From: Candidatus Micrarchaeota archaeon
Lineage (GTDB): Archaea > B1Sed10-29 > WALL01 > WAMD01
Assembly: GCA_964652335.1 (NCBI GenBank)
Contig: CAZZDL010000001.1
Span: forward strand, 62,181-77,400
Direction: 5' to 3'
DNA: 15,220 nt
This document shows, piece after piece, positions 5,109 to 10,241 of this stretch. Every line of letters begins with the position of its first letter. Position 1 is the stretch's first letter. Position numbers and translations under genes: made by a program. A model generated the notes under the pieces. The model searched no databases, was not told where the DNA came from, and saw nothing but the letters and a program-made list of their open reading frames with translations.

Positions 5109-5182
5109 GGGCTCATAGCTCAGCCAGGTAGAGCATCCGGCTCTTAACCGGACGGTCGGGGGTTCGAATCCCCCTGGGCCCA
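5109..5182 (+). tRNA. tRNA-Lys(CTT)
   Basis: Acceptor GGGCTCA/TGGGCCC (one G-U), anticodon arm TCCGG-CT-CTT-AA-CCGGA, T-arm GGGGG-TTCGAAT-CCCCC, discriminator A, no CCA. Confidence 0.96.
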
Positions 5183-5246
5183 CTATGGGACTTTATGTCC
5201 CATCCTTGCGGGGTTCTAGTTTTCCCAAGGCTTTTCTAAAAGGCTT

Positions 5247-5269
5247 TTCGAATCCCCCTGGGCCCACTA
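5247..5269 (+). repeat. Exact 23-bp duplicate of the tRNA-Lys 3' end plus 3 flanking nt (att-like direct repeat)
   Basis: TTCGAATCCCCCTGGGCCCACTA at 5163-5185 and 5247-5269, separated by 61 bp. Confidence 0.92.
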
Positions 5270-5782: not shown

Positions 5783-6208
5783 ATGCAAAAGAGAAGACGG
5801 CCAGCTTGGGTAAAGGATATAGCGAAACGATTTATTAATAGAATGATCTCGCTAGCTGAAGAAACAGAGGATACGGAGCTTTCAAGGAGATATGTAGAAA
5901 TCGCGTTGAAAGCATGTAAAAAGTATAATGTAAGATTACCACTAGATTACAAAAGAAAGATATGTAAAAACTGTTATGCAATACTTATACCAGGCAAAAC
6001 AGCTTTGGTTAGGATATCTAAAGGAGTAGCAATATGGATATGTAAGGAGTGTGGCCATGTCAAGAGGATCGGATCTAAAAAAGAAGGCCAGGGAGCTAAG
6101 ACCCCTGGTAAGGATAGGGAAGGCAGGGCTAACAGAAGGAGTCATACTGGAGATAAAAAGGCACCTAGACACAAAAGAGTTAGTGAAGATAAAGGTTCTG
6201 CGCAGTAG
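5783..6208 (+). CDS. rnp4: Ribonuclease P protein component 4 (Rpp21)
   Basis: IAKRFINRM...RRYVEIA...KRKICKNC...LIPG...CKECG zinc ribbon, in the conserved position upstream of yhbY-rps19e. The C-terminal tail overlaps yhbY. Confidence 0.92.
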   Translation: MQKRRRPAWVKDIAKRFINRMISLAEETEDTELSRRYVEIALKACKKYNVRLPLDYKRKICKNCYAILIPGKTALVRISKGVAIWICKECGHVKRIGSKKEGQGAKTPGKDREGRANRRSHTGDKKAPRHKRVSEDKGSAQ

Positions 6209-6317
6209 TAAAGAGGATTATATGTATATAGTAGAAACCCTTTTAAAGGAGACAAATTCAAAATTAATAAGCTCTGTAGGGCACACCTTTGTTTTGTATA
6301 AGCCCAAAAAGAGGTGA
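6057..6317 (+). CDS. yhbY: YhbY/CRM-domain RNA-binding protein
   Basis: [31 protein letters not shown]...[15 protein letters not shown] at 6045-6048 before ATG 6057. Confidence 0.92.
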
Positions 6318-6321
6318 ATTT

Positions 6322-6885
6322 ATGGCAACAGTGTACGATGCACCATCAGGAGAGCTCATATCAAGAGTGGCTGATAAGCTGAAAAAGATTAAAGAGATAA
6401 ATCCCCCAGAATGGGCGAAATTCGTTAAGACTGGGCCACACGCCGAAAGGCCACCAACTCAAAGAGATTGGTGGTACATAAGGTGCGCTTCCATACTCAG
6501 GAGAGTTTATATTGATGGTCCAATAGGAGTTGGTAGGCTTAGGACATGGTATGGTGGAAGGAAGAATTATGGTCATTCACCTGAGCATCACGTAGATGCA
6601 GGCGGAGCCATAATAAGGAAAGCCCTTCAGCAGTTAGAGGCTGCTGGGCTTGTTGAAAAGGCAGATAAGGGTAGAAAGGTATCTCCAAAAGGTCAATCCC
6701 TTCTTGAGAAAACCGCCTCTGAGCTAACAAGTGTTGAACAGAAAGAGAAACCAAAATCAGAAAAACCAAAGGAAGTAAAGCCAGAGAAAAAGGAAAAGAA
6801 GAAACCAGAAAAGAAGGAAAAGAAAAAGCCAGAGAAGAAGACAAAGAAGTCCACCAAAGCAAAATCAAAGAAGGGTGGAAAATAA
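6322..6885 (+). CDS. rps19e: 30S ribosomal protein S19e with a Lys/Glu/Pro-rich C-terminal extension
   Basis: [56 protein letters not shown] before ATG 6322. Confidence 0.97.
6743..6846 (+). repeat. 104-bp coding repeat, copy 1 (rps19e tail)
   Basis: Identical base for base to 9151-9254; contains 24-nt tandem units encoding PEKKEKKK. Confidence 0.95.
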
Positions 6886-6886
6886 G

Positions 6887-7213
6887 ATGGATGACCTGGA
6901 GGAAATAAGAAGAAAAAAATTGGAGGAGTATCAGGAAAGACTGAAACAAAAAATGATAGAAGAACAGGAAAAACAAAAATTGCTTGCAGAGAGGGAAGCC
7001 ATATTATCCTCTATACTCACTCCAGAGGCAAAGTTAAGATTGAACAACGTTAAGCTTGCTGATCCAAAGAAGGCGTTATACGTTGAAAATGTGCTAATAG
7101 CCCTGTATCAGAGTGGTAGGTTATCCAGAAAGATAACAGACGATGATCTAAAAAGGCTGTTATTAAGAATGTCCCAGAAAAGGGAAACTAAAATTAAGAT
7201 AAAGAGGAAGTGA
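6887..7213 (+). CDS. PDCD5/TFAR19-family DNA-binding protein
   Basis: [14 protein letters not shown]...[15 protein letters not shown]...[11 protein letters not shown]...[10 protein letters not shown]...KIKRK; conserved position after rps19e. Confidence 0.95.
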
Positions 7214-7217
7214 TAGT

Positions 7218-7385
7218 ATGGGAAGCAGGAAAACAGAAAAGGAAAAGGAGAGGCTTAGTGCAAAGGCAAAATCAAATAAGAGAGTTCCTGTTTGGGTGAT
7301 TCTTAGAACAAAAAGAAAATTTAGTGAAAACCCTAGGAGGTACCACTGGAGAAGATCAAAACTAGGTAATGAGATAAAGGAGTGA
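7218..7385 (+). CDS. rpl39e: 50S ribosomal protein L39e (55 aa; below the ORF-track cutoff)
   Basis: Manual translation [55 protein letters not shown] contains N.RVP.WV and HWRRSKL; lies directly upstream of rpl31e. Confidence 0.95.
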
Positions 7386-7390
7386 TCTAA

Positions 7391-7768
7391 ATGGCGAAGG
7401 AAGAGGTGAAAGAGAAGAAAACAAAGTCCAAACCTGAAAAGAAACCAGTGGAGAAGAAAACTAAGGAAGAAAAACCAAAGGAAGTAAAGCCAGAGAAAAA
7501 GGAAAAGAAGAAACCAGTGGAGAAGCCAGCAAAGGAAGAGATTCATAAAATAAAACTTTCCAAGGCATACGATACACCCAGAAAAAGAAGAGTAAAGGCA
7601 GTTATGACTATAATTAGGGATTATGTCAAAAAGCACAAGAGGAAGGAAGCAATAATTACCCCAGAGTTGAATTCTGTTATAATGGAAAGGAGTATAGAGA
7701 ATCCTCCAAGGAAGATAAAGGTAAAACTGGTTGAAAAGGAAAAGGTGTTCGTTTATCCAGCTAGCTGA
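7391..7768 (+). CDS. rpl31e: 50S ribosomal protein L31e with a Lys/Glu/Pro-rich N-terminal extension
   Basis: PRKRRVKAVMTIIRDYVKKH...ELNSVIMERSIENPPRKIKV; synteny between rpl39e and aIF6. Confidence 0.93.
   Translation: MAKEEVKEKKTKSKPEKKPVEKKTKEEKPKEVKPEKKEKKKPVEKPAKEEIHKIKLSKAYDTPRKRRVKAVMTIIRDYVKKHKRKEAIITPELNSVIMERSIENPPRKIKVKLVEKEKVFVYPAS
7468..7517 (+). repeat. 50-bp partial copy of the coding repeat (rpl31e N-terminus)
   Basis: Identical to 6759-6808 and 9167-9216; encodes [16 protein letters not shown] in the same frame. Confidence 0.93.
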
Positions 7769-7776
7769 GTGATTGT

Positions 7777-8442
7777 ATGATAAGCAAGGGAGAGATCTGG
7801 GGAAACCCATTTATTGGTTTATATGCAGTGGCCAATGAAGACTATTGTTTTATTCCACAAAACGCGCCAGATAAGCTTGTGACCCCAATAATGGAAGCCA
7901 TGGATGTGGATATAATCCGTGCAAGTATCTACAATTCACCTTTAATCGGTCTTTTTTCAGTGATAAACAAAAGAGGAGCTGTCTTGCCATCTGTTGCGTA
8001 TTCAAGTGAAATAAAATTATTTGAGGAGCATCTTGACGTTTTGATCCTTGATGAATACACTGCAATCGGAAATTTGATATCTACAAATGACAAAAACGCA
8101 ATAATATCCCCAGTTATAAAAGACATATCCTCGGTGGAATCTGTCCTTGGTGTGAAGGCAAGACCTATGACGATTGGAGGAATAGATGTGACAGGTTCAA
8201 TGATAGTTATCACCAACTCTGGGTTTTTTGTATCTAGTTTGGCTAGCAAGAATGAAATGGACGAGGTGTCAAGATTTTTAGGTCTTGAAGGTTCTTCTGG
8301 TACAGTTAACTATGGAAACCCAATGGTTAAATCTGGGATAATCGCAAATACTAAAGGGGTGGTCGTTGGCGAGGCCACCACCCCATACGAGATGGGACAA
8401 ATAGACGAAGGGATAGGTGGTAAAGATGATAAAAATATTTAG
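7777..8442 (+). CDS. eif6: Translation initiation factor 6 (aIF6)
   Basis: GNPFIGLY, SPLIG, AIGNLI..ND, GTVNYG.P.VKSGIIAN.KG.VVG..TT..E motifs; synteny. Confidence 0.95.
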   Translation: MISKGEIWGNPFIGLYAVANEDYCFIPQNAPDKLVTPIMEAMDVDIIRASIYNSPLIGLFSVINKRGAVLPSVAYSSEIKLFEEHLDVLILDEYTAIGNLISTNDKNAIISPVIKDISSVESVLGVKARPMTIGGIDVTGSMIVITNSGFFVSSLASKNEMDEVSRFLGLEGSSGTVNYGNPMVKSGIIANTKGVVVGEATTPYEMGQIDEGIGGKDDKNI

Positions 8443-8644
8443 GGTGTTTGGTAAGGTCAAGGGAAATAGATTTGCACTTGACGTAGCATCCACAGACAAA
8501 GAGCATGCAATAGAAAAAGCATATGCAAATCTTGGTTCAAGACATGGAGCAACCAGACATGATATAGTTATTGATGATGTAAAGGAGATAGATCCAAAGG
8601 AAACCAAGAGCAGAGTTTTAAAACAACTTCATGGAGGCGATTGA
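8426..8644 (+). CDS. rplX: 50S ribosomal protein LX (L18ae/L20e family)
   Basis: KIFRVFG...A..KEHAIEKAYANLGSRH....I.I..VKEI; located between aIF6 and pfdA. Confidence 0.9.
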   Translation: MIKIFRVFGKVKGNRFALDVASTDKEHAIEKAYANLGSRHGATRHDIVIDDVKEIDPKETKSRVLKQLHGGD

Positions 8645-9065
8645 TTTGGAACTTACTGTAGATCAGGCGATTCAGCTTTTAAGATTTGAAGAGGCTAAGC
8701 TAAAGGATGTTGAAGCAAGAATGAATCAGAGCATGGCTTTACTCAATGAGCTCCAGCTAGCGAAAGCCACATTGCAGAACCTACCAGGCAAGAAGACAGA
8801 GGGATTGTTGCCAATAGGTGGGGGAGTTATGCTCCCAGCGTTAACCGAGAAAGGCAATGTACTGATAAATGTTGGCGCAGGTGTTGTTGTTGAGAAAAGC
8901 CTTGAAGATGCAGTCTCATTCCTTGATAAAAGGATAAAGATGATTGAAGAAAATATGAACAATCTAGCTAGACTTGCGCAAAAAACAGCAAAGAACATCT
9001 CTGTTTTAAGGGCAAAGATAGATGAAGCCATAAAAGCTAGACAAGGCCCAGCAGTGGTGGGTTAG
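8631..9065 (+). CDS. pfdA: Prefoldin subunit alpha
   Basis: Coiled coil - LLPIGGG...VLINVGAGVVVEKSLEDA - coiled coil; synteny. Confidence 0.95.
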   Translation: MEAIDLELTVDQAIQLLRFEEAKLKDVEARMNQSMALLNELQLAKATLQNLPGKKTEGLLPIGGGVMLPALTEKGNVLINVGAGVVVEKSLEDAVSFLDKRIKMIEENMNNLARLAQKTAKNISVLRAKIDEAIKARQGPAVVG

Positions 9066-10241
9066 GTGTTTGGCTTTCTCAAAAAGAAGCTGTCTGAATT
9101 AAAGGAAAAGATAGTTGGTAGACCAGAGGAGCAGGAGAAAAGGCTAGAGGAAGAGAAACCAAAATCAGAAAAACCAAAGGAAGTAAAGCCAGAGAAAAAG
9201 GAAAAGAAGAAACCAGAAAAGAAGGAAAAGAAAAAGCCAGAGAAGAAGACAAAGGCAGAGGAAAAGAAGGTAAAGAAAAAGGAGAAGCCAAAAGAAGAAG
9301 CAAAGCCAAAAGAAGTAAAGACAGAGAAAGCGAAGCCAAAGGAGACAAAAGCTGAGGAGGAAGCCAAGGAAGCAAAAGTAGGTGTCCTTTCAAGGATAAA
9401 AAAGGCATTATCAAGGAAATTCAAATTGTCTGATGCAGAACTTGATGATTATCTATGGGATATAGAGATTATTCTACTTGAGGCGGATGTGGCCCACGAA
9501 ATAGCAGAGGAGATAGTCTCCAAATTGAGGGATAAGCTGTCCAATGTCGAATTTTCATCCAAAGAAGAAGTTTTTGATAGGATAAAGCAGATCCTAAGGG
9601 ATATCCTGTCGGATATTATAATAGAAGGGGAGGACATCACAAGCATTCAGAAGAAACCAACAATTATTATGTTCATTGGCCCAAACGGTGCAGGTAAAAC
9701 AACGACCATGGCAAAGCTCGCAAAGAAGTTATTGGATAACAATAAAACAGTTATATTTGCAGCCAGTGATACGTTTAGAGCTGCAAGTATAGAGCAGCTA
9801 GAAGAGCATGCGAATAGGCTTGGGATAAAAGTGGTAAAACACAAATATGGGGCAGATCCTGCAGCTGTTGCATACGACGCTGTTAAATCAGCCGAGGCAA
9901 AGGGGATAGATTTTGTAATGATAGACACAGCTGGAAGGCAAGAGACAAACTCCAATCTGATTGAGGAATTGAAGAAGATAAAGAGGGTAGTTAATCCAGA
10001 TTTTGTTATTTATGTTGATGAAGGGATAGCAGGCAATGTTATATATGACAGGCTAAAAGCCTTTAGAGAAGTAGGTATTGATGGTGTTGTTCTCACTAAG
10101 ATGGACCTTGACGTAAAGGGTGGGGGCGTTGTCACATGTGCAAGCATGGGGATACCGATAGTCTATTTTGGTGTTGGTCAAGGTTATCAAGACATCAAAA
10201 AATTCAAAAAAGACGAGTTCTTGGATGAATTATTGGGCTAG
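9066..10241 (+). CDS. ftsY: Signal recognition particle receptor FtsY with a Lys/Glu/Pro-rich N-terminal region
   Basis: GTG start giving MFGFLKKKL; LLEADV, GPNGAGKTTT, DTFRAA, DPAAVA, DTAGR, TKMD...GG, GVGQ. Confidence 0.97.
   Translation: MFGFLKKKLSELKEKIVGRPEEQEKRLEEEKPKSEKPKEVKPEKKEKKKPEKKEKKKPEKKTKAEEKKVKKKEKPKEEAKPKEVKTEKAKPKETKAEEEAKEAKVGVLSRIKKALSRKFKLSDAELDDYLWDIEIILLEADVAHEIAEEIVSKLRDKLSNVEFSSKEEVFDRIKQILRDILSDIIIEGEDITSIQKKPTIIMFIGPNGAGKTTTMAKLAKKLLDNNKTVIFAASDTFRAASIEQLEEHANRLGIKVVKHKYGADPAAVAYDAVKSAEAKGIDFVMIDTAGRQETNSNLIEELKKIKRVVNPDFVIYVDEGIAGNVIYDRLKAFREVGIDGVVLTKMDLDVKGGGVVTCASMGIPIVYFGVGQGYQDIKKFKKDEFLDELLG
9151..9254 (+). repeat. 104-bp coding repeat, copy 2 (ftsY N-terminal region)
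   Basis: Identical to 6743-6846 and read in the same frame ([34 protein letters not shown]). Confidence 0.95.

Follow-up and report, generated by a model that had tools for sequence, protein, structure and literature searches.

Gene conversion, described among other cases for the tuf genes of Salmonella (as set out in the available part of PMC8223754), transfers sequence non-reciprocally within a genome and leaves an identical tract between divergent flanks. In archaeal ribosomal proteins, low-complexity regions with an abundance of E, A, and K are frequent, among them K/E-rich terminal extensions, and FtsY has them as well; in the available text of their survey, Ntountoumi et al. 2019 (PMC6821194) argue that these regions are functional, and the extensions are said to arise via slippage, recombination, and repair. 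Rickettsia palindromic elements (RPEs; Ogata et al. 2000, as recounted in the accessible part of PMC10969869) place a short peptide in frame in unrelated housekeeping proteins, and the A domain of FtsY, the signal recognition particle (SRP) receptor, is an unstructured, variable N-terminal region before the NG domain that is dispensable in a haloarchaeon (10.1101/2022.04.13.488184, in its available sections). The locus described here lies in a stretch of 15,220 nt, hereafter the window (contig C1, CAZZDL010000001.1, positions 62181-77400), from a Candidatus Micrarchaeota archaeon (GCA_964652335.1; 821 kb, 51 contigs, 96.8% complete), in which a 104-nt coding tract in the C-terminal tail of ribosomal protein eS19 (rps19e) recurs exactly in the N-terminal region of FtsY (ftsY) and, over 50 nt, in the N-terminal tail of ribosomal protein eL31 (rpl31e).

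The locus works like ectopic gene conversion in that an identical tract ends in divergent flanks, yet its partners are not paralogs. In contrast to conversion of the tuf type, they are non-homologous and joined only by the likeness in composition of the disordered tails that they carry; at 50-104 nt the tract is short, and a C-terminal tail is linked to N-terminal regions. The low-complexity survey, in the text available, covers composition and prevalence, whereas the tracts here are nucleotide-identical between different proteins of one genome. RPEs are ~150 nt long, palindromic, and present in dozens of coding and non-coding copies (accessible part of PMC10969869), while this tract has no fold, no fixed ends, and three local copies. 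The FtsY A domain is usually acidic, whereas what was copied has a net charge of +10, hence basic, and matches the tail of a ribosomal protein exactly. The literature searched, to which subscription journals and the supplements of PMC6821194 did not belong, held no report of nucleotide-identical tracts between tails of unrelated ribosomal or SRP genes. The explanation that we favor, at a probability of about 0.6, is that low-complexity tails already present were recently subject to ectopic copying over a short range (gene conversion), probably from eS19 and near neutral. Such copying among disordered tails is most probably a harmless by-product of recombination rather than a purpose-built tag.

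An identical coding tract in three charged tails

The copies in eS19 and FtsY agree at 104 of 104 nt and can be extended on neither side, and the eL31 copy agrees at 50 of 50 nt, also at its maximal length, with tract positions 17-66 (6759-6808; Table 1). Both pairs have the same codon phase, so all three copies are read in frame, as an earlier note on this DNA had stated; the shared tract is a real observation. Flanks of the eS19 and FtsY copies diverge abruptly (left identity 4/15, right identity 2/15), and in each of its three hosts, which belong to three different Pfam families, the tract falls outside the Pfam domains. The three purine-rich tails are 709, 1699, and 2408 nt apart, with all copies within 2.5 kb. 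The same note had asked for a blastn search of the tract against the whole assembly, and this found no further near-identical copy; the shared tract is confined to three proteins of the genome.

Identity at synonymous sites separates copying from chance. Conditional on the same peptide and given the codon usage of the window, identical synonymous choices would arise by chance with a probability of 10^-10.7 over 34 codons and 10^-4.8 over 16 codons, which indicates DNA copying and not convergence. Convergent drift of low-complexity K/E coding DNA, to which the 87% purine content of the tract might lend itself, is refuted by the first of these values and by 1465 between-genome heterologous tail pairs, whose longest exact match is 18 nt. 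Within this genome, 38 K/E-rich coding segments form 698 pairs, of which 689 share at most 17 nt exactly; eight of the remaining nine come from the trio itself (shadow frames included) and one is a 64-nt match of two K/T-rich open reading frames (ORFs). Among 799 ORFs of at least 90 aa, 88 pairs have an exact match of at least 18 nt, and masking leaves 67 of these 88 without further homology. A match longer than 27 nt is seen in just five: the trio (104, 50, and 50 nt), a 266-nt pilin-like module, and a 78-nt local duplication.

The absence of any difference over 104 nt puts the 95% upper bound of divergence at 2.8%, which bears out the claim of recent copying. Two 8-codon units within the tract have different bases at four third positions but no residue that differs, so the tract had grown old within a single gene by the time of copying.

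The tails themselves are low-complexity extensions outside the folded domains, with disorder predicted for eS19. K, E, and P make up 80% of the eS19 and eL31 tails, and residues 143-187 of eS19 have an AlphaFold predicted local distance difference test (pLDDT) score below 50, a prediction of disorder available for the eS19 model only. Solved eL31 chains align from residue 45-52 onward, except for a single eL31 chain, whose alignment starts at residue 2, and the motif GGAGTGA stands immediately upstream of the rpl31e ATG. In ftsY, the tract sits in a variable region that, judged from the N-termini of relatives, follows a conserved N-terminal start and precedes the NG domain. Going by the reading frame, the tail of eS19 comes ahead of the stop codon, and the tract is putatively part of the eS19 and FtsY proteins.

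That the assembler homogenized or mis-joined similar low-complexity stretches was weighed against k-mer contigs from four runs, two of which (X3 and X4) were too thin over the tract and were excluded. Contigs of this metagenome assembly overlap by 55 nt, so that a 104-nt repeat exceeds k, and none of the contigs or records available spans a whole copy. In run X1, which was put together by a different assembler and is possibly the source sample, unique contigs stop and start 30 nt within the repeat at all three copies (bounds 6144-6772, 6817-7497, 7488-9180, and 9225 onward), thus entering and leaving it at three places. Its shared-node depths of 100.9, 159.3, and 97 amount to 50, 53, and 49 per copy for two, three, and two copies; these values lie under the depth of unique DNA (72-93), yet the ratio 2:3:2 is correct. 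In unique DNA, run X2, which comes from a separate study, shows eight differences to the window; its shared nodes are the same, in a comparison made without an eS19 core contig. There, the three-copy/two-copy node is unbroken over 6759-6846 at a depth of 80.2, 7498-7555 is uncovered, and no exit into eL31 is seen; this pattern may reflect a longer eL31 tract (88 nt) in that strain or graph simplification (34.2 versus 26.7 per copy).

Protein records point the same way. P0004, an FtsY from an independent assembly with one other residue changed and thus a different allele elsewhere in the protein, carries the same 34 residues. P0005, a third FtsY record on a 2.7-kb contig, has one 8-residue unit fewer, a difference that could itself stem from assembly. 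Since a one-base bubble would be impossible at k=55 within a 104-nt repeat, and given the two runs and P0004, an artefact is highly unlikely; a small risk remains because no record spans a whole copy.

Tails in relatives and the mode of copying

The phylum comparison set comprised 31 genomes of 0.3-1.3 Mb each (G000 is the host assembly, G001-G011 are relatives, and P-numbers are homologous protein records), and loci were recovered from 30 of them. In G001, a genome of the same genus that is 61% complete, the queries used matched none of the three genes, so there is no close outgroup. Tails of at least 25 aa occur in 18 of 28 eS19, 23 of 23 eL31, and 27 of 29 FtsY proteins recovered, and their sequences vary widely across the phylum. 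In G003, of the same family, the eS19, eL31, and FtsY tails measure 50, 55, and 121 aa, compared with 49, 50, and 118 aa here. Slots for charged tails thus pre-exist in the phylum, and identity is the special part of this locus; the prevalence of the tails suggests that a charged extension as such is tolerated or useful. In G009, the eS19 tail (L039, G009:C31:982-1140) is built of exact 48-nt tandem units with a 110-nt exact self-match, a very recent slippage expansion within the gene.

The earlier note had also proposed ongoing conversion; as a trait of the lineage, this is not supported. Three of the 56 within-genome tail pairs in the phylum come from the host genome (104, 50, and 50 nt), and the other 53 share at most 21 nt. 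That maximum, between eS19 and eL31 of G003, exceeds every one of the between-genome pairs, but the synonymous-redraw control gives it p=0.5. Gapped scores without the host genome are 28.9 within and 23.9 between genomes; at p<=0.05, however, no more than 8 of the 53 pairs exceed a codon-shuffle null, and 3 exceed a synonymous-redraw null (~2.7 expected), so most of the excess within genomes is composition. Concerted evolution of the three tails across the phylum was rejected after these composition controls. A further 80 loci from a genome collection (one duplicate phylum genome dropped) and one distant metagenome locus have mostly short tails, and the 38 testable pairs from these loci have at most 9 nt in common.

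The direction of copying was addressed by aligning 18 orthologous tails to the tract peptide, with 1000 shuffles each. The best alignment was with P0008, the top-scoring eS19 ortholog (p=0.001), and none of six FtsY ortholog tails fell below 0.05. Removal of the tract from eS19 would leave a 15-aa tail, compared with 44-70 aa in eight close orthologs, and the eS19 copy for this reason looks native. Together, these comparisons weakly favor eS19 as the likely donor.

Copying would have begun from disordered K/E/P-rich extensions already in place at the eS19 C-terminus, the eL31 N-terminus, and the FtsY N-terminal variable region. Their near-pure A/G coding DNA, evident from composition, creates partial homology between unrelated genes 0.7-2.4 kb apart in one operon. 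A non-reciprocal event, either conversion during repair or a template switch without crossover, may then have overwritten part of one tail, extending over 104 nt between eS19 and FtsY and at least 50 nt into eL31. If any K/E-rich sequence serves in these slots, the product would be tolerated and would drift. The older relics hint at repeated rounds. Crossing over between the two long copies would remove six genes and join eS19 to FtsY, so the survival of the repeat needs no special explanation: reciprocal products would lose the six genes and vanish, only non-reciprocal ones would be visible, and the retention of the copies, which had been called notable, is then expected. A full-length RadA/Rad51-family gene in the genome and the unit-number variation of FtsY (P0005) are compatible with recombination.

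Whether residues were replaced or added is a separate matter. In a rather unlikely variant, a template switch or slippage added 34 eS19-tail codons to ftsY, and 16 to rpl31e, with no residues replaced. FtsY without the tract is close in length to the shortest family orthologs, slippage is active in the tract (P0005 lacks one 8-codon unit), and the 7-mer AGAGGAA stands on both sides of the ftsY copy. That 7-mer, however, is low-complexity and two unmatched bases from the tract end, and no convincing target-site duplication was found at the tract copies. Without its copy, eL31 would have ~34 aa ahead of the core, against 55-73 in family members, and the eL31 copy fades to 88.7% on both sides, as pairing with a similar pre-existing tail would give. 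Replacement fits the eL31 and eS19 tail lengths in the comparison with G003; the FtsY length allows either.

Several points weigh against recent, near-neutral copying from eS19. FtsY minus 34 aa is still near the short end of the range of its relatives, which leaves replacement and insertion undistinguished in that gene, and the conversion tracts of Haloferax in the available text of PMC8223754 are kilobases long and lie between homologous loci. No un-copied allele occurred in any strain examined. As to direction, the tails of eS19 P0009 (p=0.01) and of eL31 in G002 (p=0.023) also fell below 0.05, the donor is read from alignments of low-complexity sequence that point only weakly, and a diverged relic in ftsY means that this gene could be the source of the first half of the tract. 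Near-neutrality, in turn, is inferred from non-conservation.

The earlier note had suggested a shared charged tag. A selected tag would serve a chaperone, a modifying enzyme, rRNA, or a condensate and would be kept identical in three proteins by conversion plus selection. eL31 is situated close to the exit of the ribosome, the docking place of SRP and its receptor, which would suit such a tag, and the internal units differ solely at synonymous sites, which reveals constraint on that peptide or frame. All copies also share one frame, but same-frame use is expected under any model because an out-of-frame copy would be lethal, and identity at every synonymous site needs no more than recency. FtsY and eL31 orthologs do not conserve the peptide, one sister FtsY (P0005) lacks a unit, phylum tails vary in sequence with 10 of 28 genomes having no eS19 tail of at least 25 aa, and no carriers exist in the genome besides these three proteins. 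The tag is therefore unsupported, and we consider it improbable, even with the case for function of K/E-rich regions in archaeal ribosomal proteins and FtsY made in the available text of PMC6821194. A related idea, also improbable, is that the tails form an exchange pool, in which a charged peptide spread by recombination was then selected as a handle that eS19, eL31, and the SRP receptor have in common; if true, the handle might gather the three proteins at a single partner or condensate where ribosome and membrane meet.

In-frame insertion of a small mobile coding element into the three genes, in the manner of RPEs, is very improbable and largely refuted. The likeness to RPEs drawn in the earlier note stands as far as in-frame placement in unrelated essential genes and the non-palindromic sequence go; the reading as a module does not, given three local copies, no fold, and tails that pre-exist in relatives. 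The tract folds at 0 kcal/mol (z 0.69), and all 200 shuffles fold at least as well; it has no inverted ends and no intergenic or distant copies in the assembly, and its copies end differently (104 versus 50 nt). G008, a relative of the same order, does have a genuine hairpin repeat in its eL31 and FtsY tails, but that pattern is absent from the host genome.

Gene neighborhood and other repeats

The three hosts belong to a gene string in a common archaeal order, eS19, PDCD5-like, eL39, eL31, aIF6, eL20, prefoldin alpha, FtsY, and SRP54, as named by a Pfam scan that covered 14 of 20 intended window proteins. The six genes between the long copies matched PF01984, PF00832, PF01198, PF01912, PF01775, and PF02996. 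A full-length RadA/Rad51-family gene lies at C1:79275-79991, ~1.9 kb past the end of the window. Two metagenome runs that contain most of the window are hydrothermal-vent samples, and some homologs are labeled 'Candidatus Diapherotrites' at NCBI, an unconfirmed placement.

Table 1. Features of the window (positions of the window, unless a contig is given) and of further repeats in the host genome (G000) and G008
Feature	Location	Strand	Remarks
rps19e, eS19, 187 aa, charged C-terminal tail	6322..6885	+	PF01090 residues 3-136
104-nt tract, copy in eS19 tail	6743..6846	+	87% purine; 34 codons: 18 K, 8 E, 5 P; net +10
Two tandem 8-codon units in tract	6781..6828	+	peptide identical, 4 synonymous (third-position) differences
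Third, partial unit in tract	6829..6846	+	directly after the two 8-codon units
Six genes between the two long copies	6887..9065	+	PDCD5-like DNA-binding protein, eL39, eL31, aIF6, eL20/LX, prefoldin alpha
rpl31e, eL31, 125 aa, ~48-residue charged N-terminal tail	7391..7768	+	PF01198 residues 58-117
50-nt exact sub-copy, eL31 tail	7468..7517	+	widens to 71 nt at 88.7% over 7455-7525
ftsY, SRP receptor, 391 aa, GTG start	9066..10241	+	PF02881 (SRP54_N) 109-178, PF00448 (SRP54 GTPase) 198-391
104-nt tract, copy in ftsY	9151..9254	+	exact match to eS19 copy
Older diverged relic of the tract's first half, within ftsY	9279..9329	+	blastn 80% over 51 nt, one 3-nt gap
Palindromic repeat sites, G000	C1:84901-85096; C9:30298-30430; C23:8417-9212; C26; C28:2576-3631; window 5163-5269		
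Pilin-like paralogs, G000	C1:104680-107136; C9:18167-20587; C12:2229-4682; C31:4398-5993		
Hairpin repeat sites, G008	L189 (C13:79326-79345); L179 (C13:77433-77460); L177 (C4:81103-81133); L178 (C5:54597-54624); L190 (C14:60-79); L180 (C4:68560-68586)		

The hairpin repeat of G008 is 28-31 nt long and GC-rich, of the type GGGGTGTC...GACACCCC, and is read in frame as GVS..ATP. It is hosted by the charged tails of eL31, FtsY, and an eL24-like protein (named by sequence) and by a hypothetical protein, with one possibly non-coding copy. G011 has two matches to it (L181 and L183), and in the FtsY record P0136 the peptide SAPEAATPQ is present twice. The G008 repeat is an RPE-like mini-palindrome, and the same tail slots can acquire repeated DNA by a different route.

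Further repeats occur in the host genome. A non-coding palindromic repeat family of 30-130 nt is clustered by tRNA genes, and two 23-nt copies follow a tRNA-like gene at window positions 5163 and 5247. The 64-nt exact match mentioned above joins C3:15609-15672 and C16:5871-5934, in two basic K/T-rich ORFs (~40-45 aa, resembling histone H1 tails) on different contigs, which are probably paralogs with a recent copy. A 27-nt exact in-frame match joins C1:57688-57714 and C1:50231-50257, in a 456-aa gene and an unrelated 237-aa ORF 7.5 kb apart, and is a further short copy of local range in the genome. Pilin-like paralogs of ~810 aa have exact blocks of 220-367 nt in common at either end, which points to frequent conversion between paralogs of this genome.

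Probable exchange of coding DNA among disordered tails

The locus offers a clean, very recent snapshot in which non-homologous essential genes appear to exchange coding DNA through compositionally alike disordered tails. Exchange of this kind would be a route besides slippage for quick change of ribosomal-protein and FtsY extensions in small-genome archaea, and 50-100 nt of low-complexity similarity may suffice for it in nature. No new biochemical function follows from the finding; it cautions that a peptide found in the tails of several unrelated proteins is not necessarily a functional motif.

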